Shown: positions 8,983 to 32,191, counted from the stretch's first letter. The stretch is 64,000 nucleotides of DNA from a virus (IMGVR_UViG_3300043438_002264:60541-124540); one strand, 5' to 3'. Numbers and translations are program-made. The notes: generated by a model not told the origin, from the letters alone.

Positions 8983-9684
8983 TTAAACCTCTTCTAGAGT
9001 TACAGAAATATTCCAGAAATCATAATTTGATCCACCACGTTTTTCAACAGAGTAACTAAAATCAGAGATATACATTTCTATGATTTGGTTATACTGTCCA
9101 AGTTTTTTATATCTATTTACATCGTCTTCGCTAAAGTTAGTATACTTATCGTAAGCTAAATACACCCAAAAAGAATCCTGATGGCTGTTATACCAATCTA
9201 AAATTTCTACCCCGCCAGCTCCGCCATCAGTTGTATACTGCTCTGAAGCTGTAGTTGCATTCGGAAGAATTTTAAAAGATCCATCTGTTCCAGGACTACG
9301 AACTCCAGAAACTATCAGGTCTGGATCTGCTATTTCAGAATCAAAATTCGGGTATTCTGAAAATGACCTAGATGGAAGCATATTCCAAGATGTTGAAATA
9401 GTAAGCTTATCTGCAATGTGATAAGACCTCATTCTTCCGTTAATCATTCTTTCTCTGCGTTCCAACCTAAAGGGCTGAAACTGTAATGGCTGACGATTAT
9501 CATCAGACAACACAATAAATTCATTTAAAAGGTCTCCAGACTCAGTCTGTGAAATATCTTGACCAACCTCAAAGCCGTTAGGTATGTAAAGGCCAGATGA
9601 AAGAGTCCCTGGATTATTTGCCCATAGCATTGCCTGAGGCCTTTGGTACTTTTTCCTACTGGTCATATATACGTTAGTAGCCAT
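8983..9684 (-). CDS. Distal tail (Dit)-like protein
   Basis: Directly downstream of the tape measure; RMINGRMRSYHIADK...WNISVTLEEV. Confidence 0.55.
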   Translation of the reverse strand: MATNVYMTSRKKYQRPQAMLWANNPGTLSSGLYIPNGFEVGQDISQTESGDLLNEFIVLSDDNRQPLQFQPFRLERRERMINGRMRSYHIADKLTISTSWNMLPSRSFSEYPNFDSEIADPDLIVSGVRSPGTDGSFKILPNATTASEQYTTDGGAGGVEILDWYNSHQDSFWVYLAYDKYTNFSEDDVNRYKKLGQYNQIIEMYISDFSYSVEKRGGSNYDFWNISVTLEEV

Positions 9685-12600
9685 TAGAACCTGTTGCTCC
9701 TTATTCTTTGAGAATCGATTCTACGAATCTGCCCCATAACTGTTTGTGCAATAGCATTTGGATCTGATACAGAAGACACATTTACACTCAAGTTATAATT
9801 ATACACTGAACTGTTGTCTGATATCGAAGGTACATTAATGTTTACTGGAGCAGAGTCAACTCCATAGTTGCCAGTTGTACCCTTAAAGCTTGGATTATTA
9901 AAAGATGGAATCATTCCATTATTAAGTTGTTCAAAGAACTTTGGTCCAAATTTTCTAACTGCTGGTCGTCTTATTACAAACTCTCCAGGAGTCAGCATTG
10001 CGGGGACGATATCTGATCCTAGAGGAGACCCTCCATTTGAGTAGTTAGCCATAATCTTGCCACCCATGGCCCTCTTAACCCACTGGACTCCATTCCAAAT
10101 AAACTGTCCTCCAGGCCCTACCTGACCAGGCTTATCTCCAGGCTTTTCTGGTCCAGGTCTTGTATTGCCAGGAGTTGGTTTAAATTCTGGATTAGGAGTT
10201 AAGATATTCTTTCCTGTTTCGCTACCTATCTTTACCCAAGACTTTCCATCCCAGACAAAGTTGCCCTGAGGACCAAGCTGTCCAACAAAAGACCCATCTT
10301 TTTCTGGTCCAGGTCTTGAACCTTCAAATCCTCCTGATCCTCCTGGCAACTGCATTCCCGCCATCTGCTGCAAGGTAGCCAAAGCTTCTTTAAGACTATC
10401 CGCATACTCTTTAGTAGAAAACTTTGCACTGTTAATCTTATTAACAAGATCATCATACTTTAGGCTTTGCAGCTTCAAGCTTGCCAAAGCCGTTTCTCTT
10501 TCAACCTCTATAAGCCTTACTCTTTCCCTTGCTGGCTCAAGCCTATCTTCTTCAATCGCAAATATTTCTTTTTCTTTTTTAAGAATATCTTCTTCAAGCT
10601 GCAACCTTGACTTGCCCTTTGAAGAACGTACAAAGCCTAGCTCTTTTTCTCTTGCTGACTCAAGAGCAGAAGACTGTCTTTCAAAAGCTTGCTCAGCCTG
10701 AGTTTCTCTTATATTTTGAACTGCTTGAGCCGCAGCTGAAAGGTCTCCTCTAGTGATAGCTTCTGCAAGTGATAGCTGTCCTTTTTGCTGATCAGAAATA
10801 TCAGAGTTTATGCGTCTTACTTTATCTAGAGCTTCTGCTCGTTTATCATACTTATCATTGATAGCATCTTCTTTCCAGCTTATCTCCTGAAGTCCTGCTT
10901 GGAAGTCATCTATTTGGAATTGTAAAGCAGCAATATCAGATTCAGCTGAACGTATTGCCGTCATGTCTCCAGATACTGCAAACTCAAAATTAATCTCAAC
11001 TCTTTCTGTTGCAGAGTCTATGCTTTCTTTTAAGAAGCTAGCAAGGCTTTCTGGGCTTATCTCCCTTATTGCTTTTTCTGCTTCTTTTGCAGAGTTAACG
11101 ATAGTCTTTAATTCTTCCCTGCCTTTTTTACCAAGTTTCATTGTTGCAATACCAGCAGCAAAGGCAGCATCCTCCACTGCACTGTAAGCATCTGAGGCAG
11201 CCATTCCAGCAGAGATTAGTCTTTCAGCCGCTATCTTTTGGTTTTTTGAATTTGCAATAGCTCTTTGCTGATCTATAACAAAACCACCGATAGAAATTTC
11301 ATTAAAGGTTTTTTGCAAAGCCTTTCCTTCATTGGTTAGCTTTGCTACACCCTTGCTAATTTTAAATAGCTTATTTTGTTCTGATTTATCTAAGCCTGAT
11401 ATAAAGCTTTGAAACTCTTCTGTTGTTCCTCCAGCTACAAGGGCGTTCATAGTGCCCTTAAAAGGCCTCATGTCTTTAGCCTTGCCCAACCACTTAGTTA
11501 GCTCCTTAAGGCCTCCTGTGGCCTTCACAGCGTCTTGGCGGAGCTCTTTAAGATCTGTTAGGACATTCTTGTAAGGGCTTTCTTTTTTAGTTCCACCTGT
11601 AGGGGTTTTCTCGGTGTCAATTTCACCAGTAGGATCTTTTGCTAGGTTTCCTGTAACATATTGCTCTGCATCTTCTCCCGCAATAATTGAAGCAACTTGC
11701 TCATCTGTAAGTTTGCTTTCAAAAGCTGGCTTTTGTGTATTTCTCCAGGCTTGAATCATATCAGGAGCTTTCAAAACTGTTTCATATTGAGTAGCATATA
11801 CCTGTGTGTAAACAACCTTTTGATCTGGTGGAAGATCTTTGTAGAAGTCGTCGAACTGTGCACCCTGCTCTGCAGTAATAATTTTTTGTTCTATAAGACT
11901 TTCTACATTGAGCATTCCTTTATTCTCTAGGTCTTTTAGCTTGTTAAATTTTTCCGTTAGCTCTGTTAGTTTATTTAAATTTTCTCCATAAAATTTCAAA
12001 ACAACTTCTGGCTCAATTGCATTGCCATCAAATGTTGCTATTTGGGTTAAGGTATCTACTGTATCTTTTGCCTGCTTTTCGCTTTTTCTATTGATGCTTA
12101 ATGAAATTTGATAAGCAACCTCTGGATCTTTTAATATTGCAAAAACTGTTTCAAGCTGGCCCAAAGACTGAGGCCCAACCTTTGTGCTTATGTCTGCTAA
12201 AACTGATAAAGTAGCCTGCCCCTTACCAGTAGTTGGATCAAACATTTTCATTAACCCATTAAAAGTTTCGGAATCTATGTTTCCTGCTGTAAGCTCTCCC
12301 AAAATTTGAAGCTTAACCTCTTGAAAGGCTGCCTCTTTTGCAATATTTTCTGCTCCAGTTAATCTGCCACCACCAGTAGCTCTAAGAGTCTTTGTAGAAA
12401 CATCTTGGCCAAATGCATTTTTGGCCACTACAGCTGAAGAGCCTTGTAACTTTCTAGCAGCTTCACCAACCTTTGGGTCTAAGCCTATTGCAGTGTTTGC
12501 TAGTTGTGATAAAATTCCTTGTTGGTTTGCAAAATCCGCTGCCGAAAAGTCTTTTTGCAACTTATAAATTTCTGATGTATAAGTCTCTATAAGTCCAGCT

Positions 12601-15600
12601 CTTTCAATTTGATACTTTTCTTCTAAAGCAAGAGCTTCATCGTATTTTCCTTCAGCATAAAGCTTATCAATATTTTTTAGATTTTCTACATCAAAAGCAT
12701 CAACTAGTTGTTGGTTTTCATCATAGAAATTAGCAACTATTCCAGCTGCTTCTCCTTCTAATTTTGCAACTCGTTCAGTATCCATCCACCAGAGTGGGCC
12801 AGCTTTATCTGTAAAGTCTTTTGACTGAAGAATTCCTCCTGCTCCAGCGATGCCAGAGGTTGACCCTTTGACAAACTCTGTGTAAATCTTTATAGTGTTT
12901 CCTTCTAACAACTTTCCGTCTGGTCCAATAATTGATTGAATTGACGCATTTATGTTTGCAGTTACATTGTAGTCGTTTAGCTTTTGCCCTAAAGAATTTG
13001 CTATGCTCTTTGCTTGCTCTGGACTTAATACTCCTGTGGCTACGGCTGTGGTTAGTTTTTTCTGTAAAGATTCTATAGCCTTAGATCGTCCAAATTTTTC
13101 TGTTTGATTTTCAAATTCAGAAAGCATTCCTTGGCCAGCTTCTGATTGAACAAACGACTGGCCAAAAGTTGTCTTTCCTGTCTGTACAGTAAATGGAGAA
13201 AATTGCTGTTGCCTTCTTTTTTCCATAAATTCAGATGGCGTTACTGTTCCTGCAGCTTCAGCAAACCTTGACATTGCATCTTTACCAGAACTTAGCGATC
13301 TAGTTGCATCGAACGATTCTTTTCTAATGTTTTGTAAAGCTATTTGAACAGCTACAAAACCGCCAACAACGGCTGCAAGAGCAGCAACAACTAGTCCGAC
13401 TTTGCTTGCTAGCATTGGAGCTATCATAGAAAGCATCATCACTGGCATCATTAGCTGATTTGCAATTTCTCCAATTTGTCCACCAACCATGGATCCGCCA
13501 ATTACACCAACCATTGCAGCTGCTCCTACCCCGCCAGCAACTTTTCCTCCCATACCTCGCATCTTAGATTGACGAGCTAACCGCTTTTCTTCTTTAGTCG
13601 CTAGGCGTGTCTTTTCTTCTGCAACTTTTTGTTCGTCAACAAGTCTAGCTTTTGTCTCAGCCACTCTTCTTTGTTTTTCTGCAGCTTCATTCTTTTTTCT
13701 TTGTGCCCGAAGTTTTGCCTGCTCATCCTTTGTAGCCTTATCCCAGTCTTTTGAGGACATCCCATAAGCTTGACTAATGCCAGAAGATCTTCTATCTGGA
13801 GTTTGCCCCTCTGGAAAACCATCCGCAAATCCTGGAAGTCTTGGGAAATTACTTGACCCTAATGTAGCAAGCCTTCCTATTCCAGGAAGCATAACTCCCC
13901 TACCCCGCATTAACTCTCTGTTTGTTTTTTTAGTTAGAATTGTTTCCCCAGGAGTTACTGCAGCCATTCGTGTATCTGATGCTGAGCCACCAGATACCCT
14001 AGCCCCAGCTGGAACCTTTTCATCTGATCCACCGATAGTTTGAGACTGCCTCCTTTTGTCCTCAATAACGTTTTCGCCTATAAGTTGAGAATAAGTCCTT
14101 AGACCTCTATCGTAAAGGTTGCGTTCAAATCTTCGATCTAAAAGCTTTCTGGTTAGTATGGCCTGATATTTTCCTTCTCTAACCTTACTGTTTCTGCTGT
14201 TTTTTGACCATACCTTTTCATCAAATGTTGTAATTGCTTTAAGGGTTGCAGCTGCAGCTTTGGTTTTTGGATGATCACCAGACACTAGTTTTTCAAGCTC
14301 TTTTCGATCTTTAATTTTTAATCGTCTTAGCTGTCCATCACTTAAAGACATTAGGTGTTTTCCTAGGTTTCCGCTTACTCTATTTAGGTAATTATTTAGA
14401 CCACCAACGTCTGGACCTATCTTAGATATATCTTTCCAGTCTTTAATGCCGTCGCCTTTTGCCGCAAAGTGTGATGCATCAATTTTTGTAAATCTTGCAA
14501 GCTGGCTGTTAGAAATACCTAGCTTTTTAGCCTCAGCTTCTAAAAATTTTATTTCGTCATTAAAGAGTCCTGATTTAATAACACTACCAGTTAAAGTTCC
14601 AACTCCCGAACCTGAACCTCCAGAAATTGTGTATTCGTGTCTTTTTCCACTTGAGGTAGCAGTATTGTTAACTCTAGAAGGAGTTAAAATTTGTTCTCTG
14701 TCAGAAAGATCTGTTAGCCTTCTTAAAATGCTCTCATCTGGTCTTCCGCTTACTCGCATTGCTTCAATAGTCTCTGGAAGTTTTTTAGCATTTCTTTCAG
14801 CAAATCTACCTCTAGTTTTAAATCTTTTGCCCAAGAATTCAACCCAATGTTCTCCATCGGTACTGCCACTAATTGCTTTTGATCCTTGACTATACCCAGG
14901 AACACCCATCTTTTTAAATAGTCTTGCAACAAAGCCAGATCCAACAACACGAACTGACCCCATGCCTGCAGCCCTTAACTCTTGTTTTAGCTGTTTTGCA
15001 ATGGCTGGGTCACGAGCAATAATTTTGTCAATTTCTTTAAATGCAAATCCGCCAGGAGTATAGGTCTCTATGTATGGTGGTTTTGGATTAGTTGTAAAGC
15101 TGTTTCCACCAGTTGGGATATTTCCAAATGGCTGTCCAAATCTTCCAAATTGAGCTGCTTGTGACTGACTTCTTGTTGCCCCACGCATTGGTGCTGGAGA
15201 ACTTGATAAGTTTCTGTTTCTAGAATAATCTAAAAGAATATCTCCAGCATAAGCAGATGATCTTTTGGCTACAGATCCCTTTGTTATTAAGGAAAGATCT
15301 CCGTATCTATCTAGCTTAGATGATCTTGGGTTCATTGCTCCTGAAGCTCTTGCTCCAGTTTTTCCAAAAAGAAGTGTGTTTAAAATTGTTTGAAGAGGTG
15401 ATGATGAAGCAAACCCATATGTTGGACGTTGACCTGCTGAGGTAGAGCCTGGCAGGCCAAAAACATCTTGCTCTAATTTAGTTCTTAATTGCTTTTGCTT
15501 AGGCTTCTTTAGTCCATATTTACTTAAGAAGTCGTCTCCAGTTCCTGTAGCAAAACCACTTTGATACTTTTTGTTTCCAGATGCTAGTGCCTGAGAAAAA

Positions 15601-17816
15601 GCCTGAGATTGCATCCTAACGCCAACATTTGATCTTCCAAGCATTGAAGCAAATGGATTTCTACCAATTCTAAATCCAGGAACGTTGTCTGAAATAAGAG
15701 AAGAAATAATTCCGCTGTATTTCTTTGATTGCTTAGCTGGAATAACTGCTTCTCCTGGGGAAAGCATTGCTGGAACAACATCTCCAGCCCCCTTTGGTCC
15801 AGGAACAGACAGAACTCCAGAGGCATACTTTTTAGGAGCTCTTGTCCTTCCAATTACACCACCACTCATGGCTGTTTGAGCTGCCAAGGATCTTCTGTAT
15901 GCAGCTGTCAAGGCATCTACGGCACCAGCTTCTGAGGTAAAAGTCTGCCTTAGTGTTTGGTGTACCTGGTTCAAGGATGAGGCTACTGCAGCAGCTTCAA
16001 GCTGTTGCTGAGTCATATACTCTGTTTGTAATCCTAGCTGTGTGCTAGAGCTTGCTGCTTTATTCATTGCAGTTTTAAAGAATACAAATCCTTTTATTAC
16101 GTTTGCAACACCGTTAGCAATAAGACCAAAGCCCATTAAGAATACTGGACCAATTACTCCAGCAATTGCTGTTAAGCCCACAACAAACTGTTTAGCTCCA
16201 GCATCCAGTTCATTAAACTTTTCAAGAATCTTTGTTCCAAATTCTAGAACTGGAGTTACAGCCTTTAAGAATGCCTCTCCAAGAGGAACAAGTGTGACCT
16301 TGATATCTTCAACAGCTTTTTGGAACTTAAACATTGGAGAGTCTTCAACTTTTTTCAACTCTCGCTCAGAAAGGATTGCTAGCTCTTCAGTAGTTGCATT
16401 TGCTAGCTTTAAAACACGACTAGCTTGGTTACCTTCTTTAATAACGTTTTGGAACAATGTAGATAGACGTGCAAACTGGAACTTACCAAATAGCTGTTCA
16501 ATTGCCTGTGCACGATTTAGCGGGTCTAAGGTATCTAAAGCCTTAGCAAAATCTATTACAATTCCTTTAACGTTCCCCTTGTTTGCTTCAACAATACCCT
16601 TAAGATTAATCCCAAATCCTTGAAGCATTTCTGCAGCTTTACCAGTTGGGTTAATCATGGATGCAAGACCAGACTTTAGTGCGTTTGCACCTTCTGAAGC
16701 ATTAATGCCTCCCTCACGCATGGCGGTGAGGAAGAAGGTCAGGTCTTGAACATCTCCACCAAGCTGCTGAACTACTGGACCAGCTTTTGGAATAGCAATT
16801 GTAAGATCTTCAATAGAAGTAACCGTTTGGTTTTCAACAGCGTTTAGGAAGTCAATCTTACCTGCTAGATCTTCTGCAGAAACTCCAAATGCGTCTGTTA
16901 ATGATATTGTAGCTTTAAGGGCTTCTGCTTGCTCTACCCCACCCAAAACAGCAAGGCGTGTAGATTCTGCAACTTGAGCAGTTAGGTCTGCACCCATTTT
17001 ACCAGTAGCAGCAATGTCAGCAGCTAGCTCCATGGTTTTTGATACAGCTATGCCATACCTTGTAAACTCATTAGCAAGGTCTTTTATTTCTGCTAAAGCT
17101 TTGTTTGTTTGTTCTGTTGTAGTAAACAACTCTCCATAAACACGTTTAAACCTAATAGCCTGTTTTTCCATGTCCATGAATGTTTTTGATGCAACGCTAC
17201 CAAACATTACTAGAGGAATTGTAAAACCAACCATAAGCTGACGTCCAGCCCACTGGGTATTCTTACCAAAGTTTAGAAGATTGGTTGAGCCTTGCTTTAA
17301 CATTTGGTTTAGCAAAGCTTGACGTTGAGCAGCAATCTGAGTTTTTGTTCCCAGACTTTCCATATCTAAAGCAAGCGGTCTAACTGCAATTGCTTTTATT
17401 GCACCGTTTGCATCACGGCCCATTCTAATGTACTGGGTCTGAAGGTCTTTGACACGTTCACGTGCGACCTTGTTTATTGTATCAAATTCAGTTCTAAAGA
17501 ATCTACCAAAAGTTTTTGTTGCAGCACCAGAGTATCTAAAATACTCTCGCATAGAAAGCTTATTTTTTTCTAATGCGTTTGTAAAGGACTCTGTGGTAGA
17601 TTTTACATTTTTTATAGTTGCAGAGAATTGGCCAGTTCTGTTTATACTATTAAGCAGTCCCTGCTGCAAATTCATGGAGGTGGCAGCGGCAGCTGCACCA
17701 CCCTTGGCCATATTAGTATGGAAGGCTGAAATCTGCCGTTGAAGATTCTTGATACTTGCCAATGCGGCAGCGGTATCAATATCAACTCTTATATTGGCAT
17801 TGGCGTCTTCAGCCAT
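9684..17816 (-). CDS. Tail tape measure protein (TP901-like core) with internal cargo domains
   Basis: 2710 aa, helical Ala-rich tape-measure core (GGINASEGANALKSGL...LFGK), hydrophobic segments, D(I/V)VPAML(T/S)PGE motifs, position after the tail chaperones. Confidence 0.92.
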   Translation of the reverse strand: MAEDANANIRVDIDTAAALASIKNLQRQISAFHTNMAKGGAAAAATSMNLQQGLLNSINRTGQFSATIKNVKSTTESFTNALEKNKLSMREYFRYSGAATKTFGRFFRTEFDTINKVARERVKDLQTQYIRMGRDANGAIKAIAVRPLALDMESLGTKTQIAAQRQALLNQMLKQGSTNLLNFGKNTQWAGRQLMVGFTIPLVMFGSVASKTFMDMEKQAIRFKRVYGELFTTTEQTNKALAEIKDLANEFTRYGIAVSKTMELAADIAATGKMGADLTAQVAESTRLAVLGGVEQAEALKATISLTDAFGVSAEDLAGKIDFLNAVENQTVTSIEDLTIAIPKAGPVVQQLGGDVQDLTFFLTAMREGGINASEGANALKSGLASMINPTGKAAEMLQGFGINLKGIVEANKGNVKGIVIDFAKALDTLDPLNRAQAIEQLFGKFQFARLSTLFQNVIKEGNQASRVLKLANATTEELAILSERELKKVEDSPMFKFQKAVEDIKVTLVPLGEAFLKAVTPVLEFGTKILEKFNELDAGAKQFVVGLTAIAGVIGPVFLMGFGLIANGVANVIKGFVFFKTAMNKAASSSTQLGLQTEYMTQQQLEAAAVASSLNQVHQTLRQTFTSEAGAVDALTAAYRRSLAAQTAMSGGVIGRTRAPKKYASGVLSVPGPKGAGDVVPAMLSPGEAVIPAKQSKKYSGIISSLISDNVPGFRIGRNPFASMLGRSNVGVRMQSQAFSQALASGNKKYQSGFATGTGDDFLSKYGLKKPKQKQLRTKLEQDVFGLPGSTSAGQRPTYGFASSSPLQTILNTLLFGKTGARASGAMNPRSSKLDRYGDLSLITKGSVAKRSSAYAGDILLDYSRNRNLSSSPAPMRGATRSQSQAAQFGRFGQPFGNIPTGGNSFTTNPKPPYIETYTPGGFAFKEIDKIIARDPAIAKQLKQELRAAGMGSVRVVGSGFVARLFKKMGVPGYSQGSKAISGSTDGEHWVEFLGKRFKTRGRFAERNAKKLPETIEAMRVSGRPDESILRRLTDLSDREQILTPSRVNNTATSSGKRHEYTISGGSGSGVGTLTGSVIKSGLFNDEIKFLEAEAKKLGISNSQLARFTKIDASHFAAKGDGIKDWKDISKIGPDVGGLNNYLNRVSGNLGKHLMSLSDGQLRRLKIKDRKELEKLVSGDHPKTKAAAATLKAITTFDEKVWSKNSRNSKVREGKYQAILTRKLLDRRFERNLYDRGLRTYSQLIGENVIEDKRRQSQTIGGSDEKVPAGARVSGGSASDTRMAAVTPGETILTKKTNRELMRGRGVMLPGIGRLATLGSSNFPRLPGFADGFPEGQTPDRRSSGISQAYGMSSKDWDKATKDEQAKLRAQRKKNEAAEKQRRVAETKARLVDEQKVAEEKTRLATKEEKRLARQSKMRGMGGKVAGGVGAAAMVGVIGGSMVGGQIGEIANQLMMPVMMLSMIAPMLASKVGLVVAALAAVVGGFVAVQIALQNIRKESFDATRSLSSGKDAMSRFAEAAGTVTPSEFMEKRRQQQFSPFTVQTGKTTFGQSFVQSEAGQGMLSEFENQTEKFGRSKAIESLQKKLTTAVATGVLSPEQAKSIANSLGQKLNDYNVTANINASIQSIIGPDGKLLEGNTIKIYTEFVKGSTSGIAGAGGILQSKDFTDKAGPLWWMDTERVAKLEGEAAGIVANFYDENQQLVDAFDVENLKNIDKLYAEGKYDEALALEEKYQIERAGLIETYTSEIYKLQKDFSAADFANQQGILSQLANTAIGLDPKVGEAARKLQGSSAVVAKNAFGQDVSTKTLRATGGGRLTGAENIAKEAAFQEVKLQILGELTAGNIDSETFNGLMKMFDPTTGKGQATLSVLADISTKVGPQSLGQLETVFAILKDPEVAYQISLSINRKSEKQAKDTVDTLTQIATFDGNAIEPEVVLKFYGENLNKLTELTEKFNKLKDLENKGMLNVESLIEQKIITAEQGAQFDDFYKDLPPDQKVVYTQVYATQYETVLKAPDMIQAWRNTQKPAFESKLTDEQVASIIAGEDAEQYVTGNLAKDPTGEIDTEKTPTGGTKKESPYKNVLTDLKELRQDAVKATGGLKELTKWLGKAKDMRPFKGTMNALVAGGTTEEFQSFISGLDKSEQNKLFKISKGVAKLTNEGKALQKTFNEISIGGFVIDQQRAIANSKNQKIAAERLISAGMAASDAYSAVEDAAFAAGIATMKLGKKGREELKTIVNSAKEAEKAIREISPESLASFLKESIDSATERVEINFEFAVSGDMTAIRSAESDIAALQFQIDDFQAGLQEISWKEDAINDKYDKRAEALDKVRRINSDISDQQKGQLSLAEAITRGDLSAAAQAVQNIRETQAEQAFERQSSALESAREKELGFVRSSKGKSRLQLEEDILKKEKEIFAIEEDRLEPARERVRLIEVERETALASLKLQSLKYDDLVNKINSAKFSTKEYADSLKEALATLQQMAGMQLPGGSGGFEGSRPGPEKDGSFVGQLGPQGNFVWDGKSWVKIGSETGKNILTPNPEFKPTPGNTRPGPEKPGDKPGQVGPGGQFIWNGVQWVKRAMGGKIMANYSNGGSPLGSDIVPAMLTPGEFVIRRPAVRKFGPKFFEQLNNGMIPSFNNPSFKGTTGNYGVDSAPVNINVPSISDNSSVYNYNLSVNVSSVSDPNAIAQTVMGQIRRIDSQRIRSNRF

Positions 17817-17834: not shown

Positions 17835-18158
17835 TTAGTTGCTAACAAGACCGTTAAGAGAAACTTCTCCAAGCTTAACGCCTGATGCTTCCTCAACAAT
17901 CTTGTAAACTGTAGGGAGATCTAGAATCTCCTCTAAAGCCTTTAAATCTTCAGCCAGTTCTGGCTTGTACTGCTTCATTGCGATTTGAACACAGTCCATC
18001 AAAATACTCATTGACTTGTCGTTATCCTCTGCAACTTCTGCAATACCCTCAAACTTCTTCATAAAAGGACGAAGCAAAGAAATCTTCAAGGGACGAACCT
18101 TGATCTCTGTTCCGTCAATTAGCTTAATTGTCTTTTCTTCGTATACTTCTGTGCTCAT
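17835..18158 (-). CDS. Tail assembly chaperone (G-like, short)
   Basis: Between major tail protein and tape measure; paralogous to the N-terminus of 18212-18913. Confidence 0.7.
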   Translation of the reverse strand: MSTEVYEEKTIKLIDGTEIKVRPLKISLLRPFMKKFEGIAEVAEDNDKSMSILMDCVQIAMKQYKPELAEDLKALEEILDLPTVYKIVEEASGVKLGEVSLNGLVSN

Positions 18159-18211: not shown

Positions 18212-18913
18212 TTAATTTATAGGCTTTTTGGTTAAATCTTCGTATCCAAGGCCCATCCCAATACCAAATCCTGCCTTTTGAGCATTAACCCCCTGTAGGG
18301 CAAGAACATCGTTTGCATTGGCAGCTTTACCACCACTAAAGACTTTGGCCTTCATTTCTTCCCATTTATTACCAGAACTATTCCCATTATTTTTATCTAA
18401 ATCTACCCCTTGCATTGCTGCAAGAAACTTTTTTTCCTGATAGTCTAAGTCTCTTTTAGATTCAAGAGTTAGCATTAGTTCTGGCATAGATAAAGATATC
18501 TCAAGCTCTTCATAATCTTTCCAAATACCAAGCAAAAATAGCTCAGCTTCAAGCTTTGCCAAATCTAGTTTTTCCCAAGAAGATCCGCTGTCTTCTGCCT
18601 GCTGCTTTACTGGATTTTCAGATTTTCCATCAATTTTTATTCCAGCAGCAATGTCTAAAATTTTATAGATTGTTGGCAAATTAACGCTGTCTTCTAGTTC
18701 TGATATAGTTGATATTTTAGGATAGTATTGCCTCATTGCTATTGCTGCACAATTTGACAAAAAGATAATAGCTTCTTCATCATTGTCAGCTGTTTTTACA
18801 AGCTCAAAAGCCTCCATAAACTGTCTTAAATATTTTATTTTTAGCGGTACCAGAGTTAGTTCTGTGCCATCTATAAGAGTAATGTTTTTTGATTCATATG
18901 CTTCTGTTGCCAT
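18212..18913 (-). CDS. Tail assembly chaperone (GT-like, long)
   Basis: Start reassigned to ATG 18913 (6 nt after TATACT); N-terminal half paralogous to 17835-18158, plus a C-terminal extension. Confidence 0.65.
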   Translation of the reverse strand: MATEAYESKNITLIDGTELTLVPLKIKYLRQFMEAFELVKTADNDEEAIIFLSNCAAIAMRQYYPKISTISELEDSVNLPTIYKILDIAAGIKIDGKSENPVKQQAEDSGSSWEKLDLAKLEAELFLLGIWKDYEELEISLSMPELMLTLESKRDLDYQEKKFLAAMQGVDLDKNNGNSSGNKWEEMKAKVFSGGKAANANDVLALQGVNAQKAGFGIGMGLGYEDLTKKPIN

Positions 18914-18929
18914 ATTATAAGTATACCGC

Positions 18930-18968
18930 AAAAACAAAACTGCCCAGCCTAAAAAGACTGGACAGCTT
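18930..18968 (-). terminator. Putative intrinsic terminator after the major tail gene
   Basis: Imperfect inverted repeat ctgcccag...ctggacag followed by TTTTGTTTTT on the minus strand. Confidence 0.55.
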
Positions 18969-27243: not shown

Positions 27244-30200
27244 TTATACAGCAGAAACAACCCTGTTTTGCCATCCAATGTTCTGATAGTTTGTGTATTC
27301 ATAGTTATTAATCTTTAATGGGGTATCGTCATCAATAATTATCTTATTTGTTCCAGTATAAGTTTTATAAATGTCTGCTGGGTTTACCCCAAAATATGTA
27401 GATGAAGAGAAGACCAATACGCCGTTCCAGGTATAGTCTTCATTCCAGAAATCCCAGTCATAAACGTCTATATTATCAAACTTAGCGGTATACCAAGACC
27501 TAAGAGTTTGTCGCTGAATTTCTTGTAAATTAGTAGACTGATACTGAGAGATGTTGTTAATTAAAACTGATCCAGTTACCCTAAATCCTCCAACATAGGA
27601 GCTAAAATCTAGCACATTTGAAAAAGATATACCTAACACACCCCAGTCATTAAGAGTAATTACTGGCTCTCTAACAATCCTTCCATTCCAATAAAATGCA
27701 ATTCCGTTTTCAAATCTACCAGTTTTAGCATTAATTCCATAAATTCTTGCACGGCTTCCAGAGGTGTCATTAGCAACTATAAAGAATTTTATGTAAGTAT
27801 CTTTGCTTTCAATTTCAAAGATTTGCTCTGGAGTTGTTGGGAATCTTGCTTGACCATATCTAATAAATGCTTGAAGAGCAATTACTTTATAATTTTCTGC
27901 TAAGTTTTGATTAATAGGAATTGAAAGCCCACGGTTTACTAATGGGTCATAATTTCCAACTTTCTCAATGCCGCTGCGTTTTGTGAGATATAAGTATGGA
28001 GTGCTTCCTTTATAGATTCTAAATGGGTTTTTAGATTTATAGTCAAAGTAAGAGCCGTACTTTAAGTATGGAAATATAGATGTTCCAAATCTTGTTCCGA
28101 CGGGATTAGAAGTTCTTTCATTAAAGGCTTGTGAAGCATACTGCATTTTCTTTACAACTAATGGGTTGGAAATAATGCCATCAATACTCCACTCTAAGTG
28201 TGTAACAATAGAGACATCTGCTAACTTAATATTTTTTGGTGGATAGATTATTGTTCCATCTACAACCTCATACTTGGTAGTTAACCATTCATCTCCAGGA
28301 CTTACTACGTTATTCTTGGGGGCAAGAGCTTTAGTAAAATAAGAGTTTTTTGCAGATGTATTAGTTTTTAAATATTGAAATGAAACATATGATTTAACAA
28401 GGCTGCTGTCAGTATTATAATAATTACCAGTAAAGTTTTCTAATGCTGGATAATCTAAGTTAAACTGAATAAAGTCAAGATCGTAATACTTCTTATCAAA
28501 AACATCTGAAACATATTGTGCAAAATATGTTAATGGCAAGTAATCTTCCCAGTATCCATCTATGGCAATGTCCATAAACATCGACTCAAAACTTATCTTT
28601 GGAATGAGTGTGTAGCTACCAATAAAGCTATCTATAAGGTCAAAGCTAAGTTGGCTGGCAAATGAGGTTGGAGAACCGCCATCAAGCTCTTCAGTATATG
28701 CTGGGCTATTGCTAAAATATTCACTTCCCGCATCGTAAGCTATTTCTGCTGGATAATCTTCAAATACATCCTCATAATTATAATACGTAAGCAAGCCTGA
28801 ATTATCAAATAAAGCTGAAATTTTTTCTAAATTTGTCTGTGTACAAAATCCAAATTTATAAATTTTTCCAGAAAATGTATTTTCAAAAGTTGCATCTCCT
28901 CCGATTGTTAAAGATAGGTTTTGCTTATTATTAAAAAATGAGGTAGCAGATTGTCCAAAGTATTTAGAGAACTTATCTATGTCAACTCCAACGGCAAGGC
29001 TTTCGTTTGCTAAAACCATTGACTCTGAATATATCGCCGAAATAGTTCCTGCAAAACTAAGGCTGTAATATAAAACATTGTTCTGAATATAGCATTCTAA
29101 ATATGTGTCTTTCCTAGTTTTATCGTTTATTTTAAACAATATTTGTTTTGATGAGCTAAGGGATCCTGGCTTAAATACCCCAAAAAACCCTTTTAGATTT
29201 TCTTTAATAATGTTTATATCTTCAAATAAAAGATATCCATCTTTTCCAGTAAGCCCAATAAAAGAATCTCCCAGCTGATCGTCGTATAACTCCTCATACC
29301 AGACTTTTTGAGTCGTACCATCTTCAAATATTACCTTTGGTAGTTTATATTCTGGAACTGAGAGTGCCTCATCTTTTACTAACAGGTTTTCTACAATTGC
29401 TTGATTCCAACGGCCAATGTCTGGGTAGCTATAGTTGCTTGTATAGTCAGCAAAAGCATAGTCTATAAGAACAGAGGTTCCTCCATATGCACTGTTTGCA
29501 TTTTCTGGGTATTCTACCGCCTGGCCATAAGCAAAGCGTCTTTTGGCAACAATAGCTGGAACCAAGTATGGGTATATTGCAACACAATCAATATCTAAAA
29601 ATGGAACATTCTCAGATGCATAAAATCCTAGCCAATCATTGCTTTTTGTTGTTCCGCTTTGAATAATTGTTTCTGATGCTAAAGCAACATCTGAAGTAGA
29701 AAAAGAAACTTCTATTGCCTGTTCTCCATTTATCAATAATGAAGCAGTATTTTCAGAAATTTTAAAGTCTAAAAGCATTGGCCTGTACCACTCTGTAATC
29801 GGGTGTGCACCAACAGAATCTCCAACCTTAATCTTTATAAATGGACCATCTACGTAAATTCCATCGGCTGAGCCAATTGGCCCAAAGATCCTAGTTGGAG
29901 AAGTTGCCTTTGAGTCAATCCTTGCCCACATCTCAGCAGTGTATTCCCTATATCTTCCAGCCTCATTTAAAAATCCTTGTCCAGGAATTATCACCGATGG
30001 ATCTGATCCATTTGGTAAAATTCTTGTAACGTTTGATGAACCATAAACAATTGGTACCCCAGAATTTTTTGCAGTCAAATATCCGTTATTAATAAAGTAA
30101 TACCCGTCTAAATCTTGTAAGCCATATGATTTTGCAGGGATTGACAAGTAGCTAAATGGAACATTGGATGGTAGGGTTTCTCCAAAAAGTCCAGGGGATG

Positions 30201-30804
30201 TTGCTAAAAATTCTTCTGACCACTGTCCAAAAGTAACTCCATTAACATAAAACTTATACTCATCTGGCAGGCCACCATTATTAACATGATTAATTTTTAT
30301 TACCATCTTTATAGGATTTATAGTTTGGGGGATGCTAAAGGTTTCTGAAATTAAGCTCCACCTATTGCTAATTTGAGAATCAAATTTTCTAAGAACTGGA
30401 CTGGCTAACCCATCATAGGTATAGCCAATTTCATAAGAAAGCACAAATGGATTTGCAGCAAACATATAGGCACTAACAGAAAAAGTCTCTAAGTCTGCAT
30501 TCATCAAAGCTGGGCTAATAATTGCAGAGCTAGTTAAAGTTATTTGATTAGTCTGCTCTAGCCCAATAACTGCTTTTACAGTGGTGGTTGAGGTAGTTGA
30601 TAGTGGTTCATTCAGTATGGCCAGGTTTTGTTCTTTTGTACCGTTGGAAATTGTCCAAGCATTGGCATCTGGAGAAGATCTATAGATATCTCTTTTTGCA
30701 TCAGAAATCAGGGAAATATAGTCAGCTTGATCATCTAACGCCCACATCGCAATAGGATGCTCGCTAAAAATCTTTTCTGCGTACAGGTTTGAAGGATTGG
30801 GCAT
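27244..30804 (-). CDS. Large virion protein with ConA/LamG-like domains
   Basis: 1186 aa; HPIAMWALDD N-terminus, YTAEMWARI and IDCVAIY LamG-like motifs. Confidence 0.6.
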   Translation of the reverse strand: MPNPSNLYAEKIFSEHPIAMWALDDQADYISLISDAKRDIYRSSPDANAWTISNGTKEQNLAILNEPLSTTSTTTVKAVIGLEQTNQITLTSSAIISPALMNADLETFSVSAYMFAANPFVLSYEIGYTYDGLASPVLRKFDSQISNRWSLISETFSIPQTINPIKMVIKINHVNNGGLPDEYKFYVNGVTFGQWSEEFLATSPGLFGETLPSNVPFSYLSIPAKSYGLQDLDGYYFINNGYLTAKNSGVPIVYGSSNVTRILPNGSDPSVIIPGQGFLNEAGRYREYTAEMWARIDSKATSPTRIFGPIGSADGIYVDGPFIKIKVGDSVGAHPITEWYRPMLLDFKISENTASLLINGEQAIEVSFSTSDVALASETIIQSGTTKSNDWLGFYASENVPFLDIDCVAIYPYLVPAIVAKRRFAYGQAVEYPENANSAYGGTSVLIDYAFADYTSNYSYPDIGRWNQAIVENLLVKDEALSVPEYKLPKVIFEDGTTQKVWYEELYDDQLGDSFIGLTGKDGYLLFEDINIIKENLKGFFGVFKPGSLSSSKQILFKINDKTRKDTYLECYIQNNVLYYSLSFAGTISAIYSESMVLANESLAVGVDIDKFSKYFGQSATSFFNNKQNLSLTIGGDATFENTFSGKIYKFGFCTQTNLEKISALFDNSGLLTYYNYEDVFEDYPAEIAYDAGSEYFSNSPAYTEELDGGSPTSFASQLSFDLIDSFIGSYTLIPKISFESMFMDIAIDGYWEDYLPLTYFAQYVSDVFDKKYYDLDFIQFNLDYPALENFTGNYYNTDSSLVKSYVSFQYLKTNTSAKNSYFTKALAPKNNVVSPGDEWLTTKYEVVDGTIIYPPKNIKLADVSIVTHLEWSIDGIISNPLVVKKMQYASQAFNERTSNPVGTRFGTSIFPYLKYGSYFDYKSKNPFRIYKGSTPYLYLTKRSGIEKVGNYDPLVNRGLSIPINQNLAENYKVIALQAFIRYGQARFPTTPEQIFEIESKDTYIKFFIVANDTSGSRARIYGINAKTGRFENGIAFYWNGRIVREPVITLNDWGVLGISFSNVLDFSSYVGGFRVTGSVLINNISQYQSTNLQEIQRQTLRSWYTAKFDNIDVYDWDFWNEDYTWNGVLVFSSSTYFGVNPADIYKTYTGTNKIIIDDDTPLKINNYEYTNYQNIGWQNRVVSAV

Positions 30805-30872: not shown

Positions 30873-31328
30873 TTAGCATCTGACGCATTCCGCCCACATG
30901 CCACAGCTTCCGTCTGCATAGGTAGTACAAATAAACCCTCCAGTACATGAAGGCTGCTGATATAAGATGGTGTATAAAGATGGGCAGGGTGCAGGTGCAA
31001 AGCTGAATGGTGCAAAAGAAAATGTTGTTGTTATTTGAACAGAATACGGAGACCAATCTCCTAAGCCAACTGCATTTTGTGCACGTACACGATATTTCTG
31101 GCCAGTTCCAGCTTCTTGCGATACAATAGCAGATGTGCTTACCGTTGTTCCACTCTTGCCGTCATCACTTTCCCAATAATAAAGTAAAATTGGGCTTCCT
31201 CCATTATTTGGAGCAACCCAGCTAATGTTATCTTGGTTAGCATTTGGTGAGGATACAGATGGGGCAGATGGGGCGGCTGGGACCGTTAGACCCAATGATC
31301 CAACAAGCCCGCCTAAAATTCCGCCCAT
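30873..31328 (-). CDS. FN3-domain protein with FSFAP motif and Cys-rich tail
   Basis: PAAPSAP...ISWVAPNNGGSPI..Y...YRVRAQNAVGLGDWS FN3 pattern. Confidence 0.7.
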   Translation of the reverse strand: MGGILGGLVGSLGLTVPAAPSAPSVSSPNANQDNISWVAPNNGGSPILLYYWESDDGKSGTTVSTSAIVSQEAGTGQKYRVRAQNAVGLGDWSPYSVQITTTFSFAPFSFAPAPCPSLYTILYQQPSCTGGFICTTYADGSCGMWAECVRC

Positions 31329-32191
31329 TAGGTTAGTCCACTACCAGAAACTATCCACGTAGTTGATTCTACTTTTACAGCTGTTGCTAGTCCGTATGCG
31401 GCAAGAGACCTAGTTCCTGTAAGGGAACTTCCAGCAAGCCTAAGGGTGTCAGTTGTAATTGCAATAGAGCTGGTTACGTTTCCATTTATAATAACAATAG
31501 CTGTTCCAATTTCAAACGGTACTGAAGAGTTAGCTGGGATTGTAATAGTTTGTGAAGAACCAGTTACATAAATATGTTCACCTGCGTGAGCTTTACTTAA
31601 GGTTAATCCGCCAGAAGCAAGAATATTTTGTGGCATTCCAATATAACCAACTGATGATGCCGTGTTGGTGTTTGCAGATGGTTCAGCTGTCAAAAGACCA
31701 GACTTTGCATTTAACTGAGTTTGAATTGCAGAGGTTACGCCATCTACATAGTTAAGCTCTGTTGCTGTTGCACTAAGGGCTACATCCTCATTAATCTTTG
31801 GCGAGGTAAGTGTTTTGTTGGTAAAAGTCTCTGTTTTAGATGCAGTTGATTTATCATTTAACTGAGTCTGTATTGAAGATGTTACCCCGTCCAAATACCC
31901 AATTTCAGTATCGGATACGTTGGTAACTTTGTCTTGCTTTGTTGATAGATCTACAGTTGCCCAGCTAGCAGCTGTTCCATCAGTAGTTAAAAACTTGCCA
32001 GAATTGCTTGTTTGAGTTGGGAGTGCTTGTTCAGAAATTGATTTTAAGGAATTCCAGGCGGTAGCCCCATCGCCTATCTTAAAAATCTTTGTATCATAAG
32101 CAAATCCAATTTCGCCAGCAGCTAAAACGGTATTTGCGGTAGACCATTGGCTGGCAGTACCACGTCTTTGAAGCATTCTGTATAGGGTCAT
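31328..32191 (-). CDS. Fibre protein with Mtd-N/hyaluronidase-N-like N-terminus
   Basis: QRRGTASQWSTANTVLAAGEIGFAYDTKIFKIGDG; DGVTSSIQTQLN repeats; conserved C-terminal adaptor domain. Confidence 0.75.
   Translation of the reverse strand: MTLYRMLQRRGTASQWSTANTVLAAGEIGFAYDTKIFKIGDGATAWNSLKSISEQALPTQTSNSGKFLTTDGTAASWATVDLSTKQDKVTNVSDTEIGYLDGVTSSIQTQLNDKSTASKTETFTNKTLTSPKINEDVALSATATELNYVDGVTSAIQTQLNAKSGLLTAEPSANTNTASSVGYIGMPQNILASGGLTLSKAHAGEHIYVTGSSQTITIPANSSVPFEIGTAIVIINGNVTSSIAITTDTLRLAGSSLTGTRSLAAYGLATAVKVESTTWIVSGSGLT

Follow-up and report, generated by a model that had tools for sequence, protein, structure and literature searches.

Tape measure proteins (TMPs) leave the phage tail ahead of the DNA at infection and insert into the host envelope. 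Muralytic enzymatic domains are embedded in TMPs and are thought to act on ejection. ADP-ribosyltransferases (ARTs) are carried in other virions, and T4 Alt, the MuF-ARTs and the polyvalent ARTs enter along with the DNA and act before the phage genes do (PMC9503650, PMC8120803). These belong to the R-S-E clade (Alt/VIP2) and are packaged in the head. The locus described here is found in a 64,000-nucleotide stretch of viral DNA (IMGVR_UViG_3300043438_002264:60541-124540, hereafter the window), where a TMP gene contains a predicted ART domain of the SopF/DUF3626 type at amino acids (aa) 724-966 (14919..15647, minus strand). The window is the right-hand 64 kb of a virus record of 124,540 bp with direct terminal repeats; GC content is ~38-40%. 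Our reading is that a divergent, basic SopF/DUF3626 ART is built into this TMP, is active, is delivered at infection and modifies a host target, and to this reading as a whole we give a probability of roughly 55%.

The closest described protein is the Salmonella effector SopF, the characterised member of the DUF3626 family, to which it has been linked (PMC6682159). SopF is a free 374-aa effector of type III secretion system 1 that acts in animal cells, where it modifies Gln124 of ATP6V0C of the vacuolar ATPase; it is an ART whose triad is 'I-Y-E', depends on ARF GTPases for activation and has been solved as 7DN8 and 7DN9 (PMC10333799). SopF is a protein injected into its target cell, and injection is what we propose for the phage domain, which differs in being part of the tail protein of a bacterial virus. 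The other members considered here are free-standing DUF3626 proteins (e.g., P0061 and P0063 of Nocardia), stand-alone proteins of 200-400 aa without known function. The next relative by fold is DarT, an ART of thymidine or guanosine in single-stranded DNA that serves as a host defence toxin against phage DNA, whereas the TMP domain is on the phage side.

The domain lies in an open reading frame (ORF) of 2710 aa, identified with its translation at window positions 9684..17816, a span that takes in the stop codon; this gene and all TMP features given below are on the minus strand. Eleven tape-measure PHROG families match the ORF. By its PhageMin_Tail core (aa 247-444, 16485-17078; Pfam 86 bits, cut-off 33.2), great length, hydrophobic segments and place between the tail chaperone and distal tail genes, it is the tape measure protein of a siphovirus structural module. 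Pfam finds no MuF domain in it. The first-pass annotation of the window had placed a DUF3626-like domain with a possible ART fold inside a tape measure at 14950-15640 (~aa 726-956), citing five motifs in the order of DUF3626. All five are present in this one ORF in the order claimed, and the interval falls within the domain as now delimited from an AlphaFold2 model, structural matches and hhalign. The motifs are KYQSGFATGTG (aa 750-760), RTKLEQDVFG (aa 778-787), QRPTYG (aa 796-801), RYGDLSLITKGSVAKRSSAYAGD (aa 837-859) and PYIETYTPGG (aa 914-923). The DUF3626 order cited there also agrees with the consensus computed from 18 free-standing DUF3626 proteins, which reads KTQFETGTS, RxxxExxxFG, RPVYGY, YGxV..LKPxVxxRTTxTxGDSL and YVEAQIHGGV. 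The DUF3626 order (F)ETGT, RxxxE..FG, RPxYG, YG..R.T..GD and YxE..GG is complete in the window, with E→A, S→I, Q→Y and H→P substitutions; the window and the free-standing proteins share the elements R..E, RPxYG, YG, GD and YxE..GG.

The link to DUF3626 at the sequence level was obtained by profile comparison. An alignment of 31 domain segments with the window first (A1) was compared by hhalign with an alignment of 18 PF12294-annotated proteins (A2), taken out of 26 free-standing relatives collected with the relative P0053. The window domain alone matched A2 at 97.0% (E 1.2e-10, score 75.7, 200 columns), whereas 20 shuffles of the same domain reached at most 0.2% (E 0.25, score 15.3). The window with its 10 closest tape-measure relatives gave 99.3%, the 28 A1 rows without P0053a, P0054 and P0056a gave 99.8%, and the full 31-row A1 gave 99.93% (E 1.8e-35, 195 columns), the comparisons with A1 subsets being made to exclude circularity. 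At E≤1, the Pfam model PF12294 itself matches 13 of the 31 A1 members, with a best E-value of 3.4e-8, and no other family recurs. Among the relatives, P0053 scores 40.7 bits and passes the gathering score of 27, while P0054 and P0046 score 20.6 and 15.9. Since the gathering score is an operational threshold, missed by the window yet reached by relatives, the window domain is best described as a divergent member of DUF3626.

Other searches of this kind added little. Pfam and PHROG run on the domain region alone returned no family, and NCBIfam run on the 31 A1 members returned just four unrelated single matches (E 0.035-0.26). The ESM Atlas best score for the ART domain was 0.89, without a Pfam family, and is not usable. 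A six-frame search of the phage genome with PF12294 gave no match, but the control was positive in 0 of 14 genomes, hence this search is uninformative. The PDB sequence search with the window domain returned just OSTC at E 1.6, which was judged spurious.

The fold was predicted with AlphaFold2. The domain model built with the A1 alignment has a predicted local distance difference test score (pLDDT) of 94.4 and a predicted template modelling score of 0.89; from the single sequence, the pLDDT is 37.5. Foldseek against the PDB gave seven matches at E≤1e-3, namely two SopF entries (7dn8_A, E 1.8e-6; 7dn9_A, E 4e-6) and five DarT chains, with DarT E-values of 6e-5 to 3e-3; tRNA 2'-phosphotransferase, CteC and pertussis toxin S1 rank below DarT. 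Alignment of the Foldseek candidates with VIA-align placed model residues 1-237 on SopF 131-374 with a Z of 11.4 (179 residues, 3.2 Å), followed by DarT with Z 9.1-10.7, Tpt1 with 7.2, CteC with ~6 and cholera-type toxins with 3-4. A scan of 48,161 chains that is independent of Foldseek gave the same ranking, with SopF at Z 11.2 and 45 chains at Z≥2, nearly all of them ARTs. The R-S-E toxins reach a Z of 3-4 only, and the domain differs from T4 Alt and the MuF-ARTs in belonging to the SopF/DarT-like clade and in being placed in the tail. Against the BFVD viral models, Foldseek gave 15 matches at E≤1e-3, with no tape measure protein among them; they include a 588-aa 'Minor capsid protein', a 'DUF3626 domain-containing protein' of a Nodularia phage and a ParB-N fusion protein of Bacillus phage CP-51.

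SopF is thus the best structural match and, by way of the DUF3626 profile, a member of the same sequence family as the phage domain. The two are only 15-16% identical in the structural alignment, and the phage domain differs in lacking the N-terminal 130 residues of SopF and in having an extra helix between RPTYG and RYGD. The fold alone cannot separate SopF from DarT because the gap in Z is below ~1-2 units; the sequence points to DUF3626. Taken together, we hold it to be nearly certain that TMP aa 724-966 are homologous to DUF3626 and adopt an ART fold. Both parts of the early proposal are thereby borne out, the DUF3626-like domain by profile-profile matches of 97-99.93% and by relatives that match PF12294 directly, and the ART-like fold by the suggested AlphaFold and Foldseek check, in which SopF and then DarT were the best matches. 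That the motif order is a chance resemblance in a low-complexity stretch of a TMP might be argued from the failure of single-sequence Pfam and PDB searches and from the low single-sequence pLDDT of 37.5. With an hhalign match of 97% compared with ≤0.2% for 20 shuffles, 55 homologues, a confident model at pLDDT 94.4 and ARTs as structural neighbours, chance is ruled out for practical purposes.

To ask what this fold may do, the residues that SopF uses were located in the phage domain. In SopF, substitution of E325 by alanine (N-ribose contact of nicotinamide adenine dinucleotide, NAD+) and of Y224 or Y240 by alanine (nicotinamide contact) largely blocks activity (PMC11937434), and the local SopF sequences at the mutated residues match the primer table of the same paper. 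The A2 profile aligns with SopF chain 7dn8_C at E 1.3e-12, which puts RPIY224 on RPxYG, AY240G on YG and YIE325AH on YxE. The A1 profile searched against PDB sequences also has SopF first, at E 1.1 only, so that significance is reached only through A2; P0053 against PDB sequences returned nothing relevant. Conservation was counted over 122 unique near-full-length domain instances. Y800 (15417-15419) of the RPTYG motif (aa 797-801, 15414..15428) corresponds to SopF Y224 and is Tyr in 120 instances and Phe in 2. Y838 of the RYGD motif (15303..15305) corresponds to Y240 (Tyr 121, Phe 1), and E917 of the YIETY motif (15066..15068) corresponds to the catalytic E325 and is Glu in 122/122.

Further positions are kept in the same way. 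In R778-x3-E782 (15471..15485), the arginine is found in 122/122 and the glutamate in 121/122, and D859 (15240-15242) in 122/122; in the free-standing DUF3626 proteins, the same columns hold R120 and E124 in ≥90% and an invariant D206. The invariant columns of A1 are R778, E782, P798, G839, D859, E917, G923 and G951. The catalytic-site residues are kept among relatives down to 23-30% identity. The first position of the catalytic triad, in strand beta1, is R734 in the phage domain (15615..15617; Arg in 115/122) in place of the Ile of the SopF I-Y-E triad. The alignment of SopF 'LTINF' on 'vtvrv' at this site is a low-scoring stretch, and Arg is also found at this position in most DUF3626 proteins.

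The first-pass annotation had left open whether the domain is divergent or inactive. Divergent it is, as no Pfam match is obtained at E≤10, while inactivity is disfavoured by the retention of Y800, Y838 and E917 in 120-122 of 122 instances and by SopF, which deviates from the consensus too. SopF carries YALGCRPG, FDIY, EAH and IHGD at the four variant consensus sites of the window, with a different residue at three of them; at the fourth, the serine of GDS is Ile both in the window (GDIL) and in SopF (FDIY). Given the conserved equivalents of the SopF NAD+ contacts and the fact that active SopF departs from the consensus at these sites too, we take the domain to be probably active, and catalytic competence, as judged from these residues, is favoured by about two to one. 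The opposite view is that the ART fold is catalytically dead and serves in structure or binding, for example as a spacer, a tail plug or a nucleotide sensor. Four motif positions off the DUF3626 consensus and the failure of the Pfam model speak for it. We regard it as quite unlikely, given that the counterparts of SopF Y224, Y240 and E325 persist in 120-122 of 122 instances along with R778, E782 and D859, that SopF is active with deviations at the same positions, and that half of the closest TMPs dispense with the module.

The phage domain is strongly basic, which sets it apart from SopF. Its net charge is +21, and the 28 A1 rows outside P0053a, P0054 and P0056a, nearly all of them tape-measure-linked, are all positive (+7 to +28). 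Among the 18 free-standing DUF3626 domains, 16 are negative, and the values span -16 to +3. This difference bears on the nature of the target. If the ART is active and, like DarT, acts on a nucleic acid, it would modify not a host protein but host DNA or RNA, which would arrest the host, or else the phage DNA as it comes in. DarT is statistically tied with SopF in fold (Z 9.1-10.7 versus 11.2-11.4, 159-176 residues aligned), and both DarT and the TMP domain are small basic ART domains, all 28 of the A1 rows being basic, unlike the free-standing DUF3626 proteins. DarT binds DNA via basic grooves (PMC9967889). However, DUF3626 is the sole recurrent family and no DarT family was found at E≤1 in the 31 members, so that a sequence-profile link to DarT was not seen; a DarG-like macro or NADAR partner was not found in the genome; and the basic charge might just as well help to pack the domain in an electronegative tail lumen or to bind it to a membrane. 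A DarT-like target is therefore considered unlikely.

Homologues of the domain were collected with phmmer using TMP aa 717-1000 as the query against 1.84 billion representatives, which gave 55 proteins at E≤1e-3 and 30 at E≤1e-30, the strongest at E 1.9e-146. The conserved N-terminal core of the window TMP (aa 1-650, 15867..17816) is common to 43 of these 55 proteins and its C-terminal part to 47, so the domain family occurs mainly in one clade of giant TMPs. Within the domain-bearing proteins its placement varies (~aa 720, 1100, 2100 and 2500). P0053 has two tandem copies, and P0056, a protein of 5843 aa, also has two copies. P0054 is a fusion of a Phage_Mu_F minor-head domain (31.3 bits, cut-off 29.6) with DUF3626. 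A tblastn search of the domain region against 50,697 GenBank phage records found nothing at E≤1e-3, and a pattern scan of IMG/VR found only two near-identical loci (95% and 88% identity). All relatives come from metagenomes, and the cluster members bear only a generic TMP name. The capsid protein is ≤42% identical to those of ~130-kb Streptomyces phages. As a side observation, one partial member of the P0191 cluster is labelled as an Oxalobacteraceae metagenome-assembled genome at NCBI, the sole pointer to a host and a weak one.

To see how the domain is distributed within the clade, the N-terminal core was searched, which gave 5177 proteins at E≤1e-10 among 8000 candidates scored. With a TMP clade of this size, the module may be common in nature. 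The 120 closest TMP homologues were taken as the best matches, 72-100% identical over aa 1-650. The ART domain is present in 60 of them, the window included (median length 2826 aa). In another 12, which have no ART, an unrelated ~340-aa cassette occupies this place (median 2865 aa), and the remaining 48 have neither the ART nor an internal cassette of such kind (median 2550 aa). The module is not structurally required, because half of the closest TMPs do without the ART. The ~340-aa cassette, at ~aa 695-1035, is found in P0099, P0102-P0105, P0107, P0108, P0110-P0113 and P0154, and its sequence includes ..YGHQISPTSGHSFPIFGLGGVYQKG.KQVFVKPVMDE... It matches the ART at 1.2% and 0.1% only by hhalign, has no Pfam family and has no significant PDB sequence match. 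Pfam on the cassettes in P0009, P0013 and P0049 found nothing beyond PhageMin_Tail. Five TMPs have two ART copies (P0138, P0139, P0141, P0163 and P0171), the additional one lying ~200-450 aa from the C-terminus and the other in the usual slot, and in P0032, P0033, P0036, P0037, P0043 and P0047 the sole copy lies far downstream, at aa 1850-2780.

The boundaries of the exchanged module were drawn from blastp comparisons of the window TMP (P0001) with relatives. P0097 matches the window TMP with 91% identity as far as aa 984 and with ~31% from aa 1414 on. With P0103, which has the alternative cassette, identity is 89% up to aa 718 and similarity is then lost; with P0146, which has no cassette, it is 83% up to aa 718 and similarity is lost at the same point. 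These recombination breakpoints define a mosaic ART module of aa 719-984 (14865..15662). N-terminal cores that are 83-92% identical can be combined with this cassette, with another one or with none. Two ~50-aa linker copies with the motif VPAMLSPGEAVIP enclose the cassette in most relatives. In the window TMP, the upstream linker unit (aa 664-716, 15669..15827) carries the first copy of this motif, located by motif search at aa 681-693 (15738-15776), and in relatives the unit recurs right after the ART module, as P0001 aa 664-716 and P0097 aa 975-1027 are 68% identical. From these alignments, the ART is an accessory module that recombines at a fixed site following the N-terminal core, with a repeated ~50-aa linker on either side.

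The linker motif recurs further along the window TMP. A degenerate second copy, RMAAVTPGETILTKK, is found at aa 1283-1297 (13926..13970), a variant also present in P0006, P0007 and P0015. A third copy, VPAMLTPGEFVIR, at aa 2604-2616 (9969..10007), lies ~100 aa from the C-terminus, in a place equivalent to that in most relatives, where the related copy VPAMLTPGEFV is 70-130 aa from the C-terminus. Between the ART domain and the second copy lies a companion module (aa 967-1283, 13968..14918), which is basic, has no recognised family and is common to 10 of the 55 domain-bearing proteins. Pfam gave no match to it, and its best ESM Atlas score, 0.79, is not usable. The companion module could be a second cargo domain.

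As an observation in its own right, the motif VPAML(S/T)PGE(A/F)V(I/M) is strongly conserved, with two to three copies per TMP in the window and in P0003-P0057 and P0088-P0198, and the linker around it reads ..SVPGPKGAGDV-VPAMLSPGEAVIPAK-..YS..I.S.ISDN(V/I)PGF. Candidate roles for the motif are a processing site, a docking element or a recombination hotspot. A tentative extension of these observations, which we think has rather less than an even chance of being right, is that the TMPs of this very abundant, uncultivated clade have a dedicated cargo slot behind the conserved N-terminal core, bracketed by the ~50-aa linker (..SVPGPKGAGDVVPAMLSPGEAVIPAK..), and that cargo is exchanged in this slot by recombination, be it a SopF-like ART, the ~340-aa domain, companion modules or two ARTs; the linker motif also marks the C-terminal end of the TMP. 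Should the motif serve in tail maturation as a site of processing or docking, the cargo would be set free as a separate protein inside the tail lumen and would enter the host ahead of the DNA. Were this true, it would amount to a tail-lumen effector delivery system in siphoviruses, comparable to MuF and polyvalent head cargo.

The delivery of the ART cassette itself can be put in terms of the TMP around it. The cassette is flanked by two hydrophobic blocks, one found by hydropathy scan at aa 541-574 (16095-16196) and one at aa 1426-1497 (13326..13541; Kyte-Doolittle, 19-residue window, peak 2.45), the second of which is likely to comprise several membrane-spanning segments, judging by its hydropathy. 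In the mechanism we propose, the cassette would be carried into the cell at infection with the ejected TMP. The basic cassette between the hydrophobic blocks would end on the cytoplasmic side and refold there. With NAD+ from the cytoplasm, it would then ADP-ribosylate a host target at the entry site or close to it, ahead of any phage gene expression. Candidate targets are a host protein, for which the SopF precedent is a membrane proteolipid, or a nucleic acid, in view of the DarT-like fold and the basic charge. In this way, the tail would deliver an enzyme much as the head does with T4 Alt and with the MuF and polyvalent cargo (PMC9503650, PMC8120803). With known muralytic domains of TMPs the ART shares its state as a globular, here predicted catalytic, domain inserted in a TMP; it differs from them in that they act on peptidoglycan in the envelope, while the ART domain must reach the cytoplasm because it needs NAD+.

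A virion-delivered effector, as the first-pass annotation had suggested, is a plausible reading, because TMPs are ejected at infection, and relatives in which the domain is joined to MuF minor head proteins agree with it as well. For delivery into the host cytoplasm on entry, taken by itself, we see the odds as even. The alternative is that an active enzyme works late in the producing cell, perhaps on phage components, and that its membership in the virion is incidental. NAD+ is present in the cytoplasm in which the TMP is synthesised, few copies are delivered per virion and a folded domain fits the tail lumen poorly, all of which would suit such an enzyme. On the other side, the protein that is first to leave the tail, with the cassette between hydrophobic blocks, would be an odd host for a late enzyme; the domain family is also found on MuF minor head proteins, another scaffold for virion cargo; and the cassette keeps a fixed slot and recombines there. 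We consider action in the producing cell improbable and prefer delivery of an active ART at infection.

A number of points weigh against the preferred reading. The virion holds only few TMP copies, and three folded 27-kDa domains exceed the tail tube lumen of ~4 nm; as folded copies do not fit, passage would require the domain to be unfolded and to fold again afterwards. NAD+ is found only in the cytoplasm. The PF12294 model gives no match at E≤10 to the window TMP or to its domain, against a gathering score of 27 bits. The window departs from the free-standing DUF3626 proteins at four sites (FATGTG for FETGTS, GDI for GDS, ETY for EAQ and TPGG for IHGG), and in VIA-align the model covers residues 131-374 of SopF only. 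Searches of the 124.5-kb genome for Macro, NADAR and ARH found none at E≤1, with controls positive in 10, 3 and 7 of 14 genomes, respectively, and an eraser or antidote partner for the ART was accordingly not found by these searches. Host inference from capsid similarity and cluster labels yielded no host. SopF requires a eukaryotic ARF GTPase activator (PMC10333799), and no counterpart is evident for the phage domain.

In the portions of the literature searched (including PMC7824862, PMC7302621 and PMC10684548), no description of an ART inside a TMP was found. The main text of a survey of viral NAD+/ADP-ribose functions (PMC9503650) is without mention of tape, SopF or DUF3626, and that of the polyvalent-protein paper is without tape measure or DUF3626; the supplements of both might list such architectures. 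One study of mosaicism in phage proteins was unable to confirm a genuine recent case in TMPs (PMC10684548), and by the breakpoints described above the ART cassette is a clear case of recent domain mosaicism in a TMP. The domain would be a new carrier for a known strategy: virion ARTs are known from heads, TMPs are known for envelope-degrading domains, and here the two are joined. It would imply that a portion of a TMP enters the host cytoplasm to work there as an enzyme, and host takeover or counter-defence could not start any earlier. As DUF3626 has one characterised member, SopF, the finding would also set this family in the conflict between phage and bacterium.

The surroundings of the TMP gene are those of a structural module. 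Upstream are genes for the portal, maturation protease, major capsid and major tail proteins and two tail-chaperone-like genes; the downstream side, with the tail tip genes, has a 233-aa protein without assigned function and a minor tail protein of 1545 aa. Immediately upstream of the TMP gene are two ORFs (18212-18937 and 17835-18158, minus strand) that both match phrog_10504, and the longer one, 18212-18937, additionally matches phrog_10474. They may be a paralogous or frameshift-related pair of tail assembly chaperones. Just upstream of the portal gene is an ORF of 1186 aa (27244-30804, minus strand) with no Pfam match at E≤1e-3. The spot upstream of the portal gene often codes for head-packaged MuF or polyvalent cargo proteins. 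Further along, a 287-aa protein (31328-32191, minus strand) has an Mtd_N domain (Major tropism determinant, N-terminal; 42.6 bits, cut-off 26.3), which hints at a receptor-binding protein of the diversity-generating-retroelement type or similar to Mtd.

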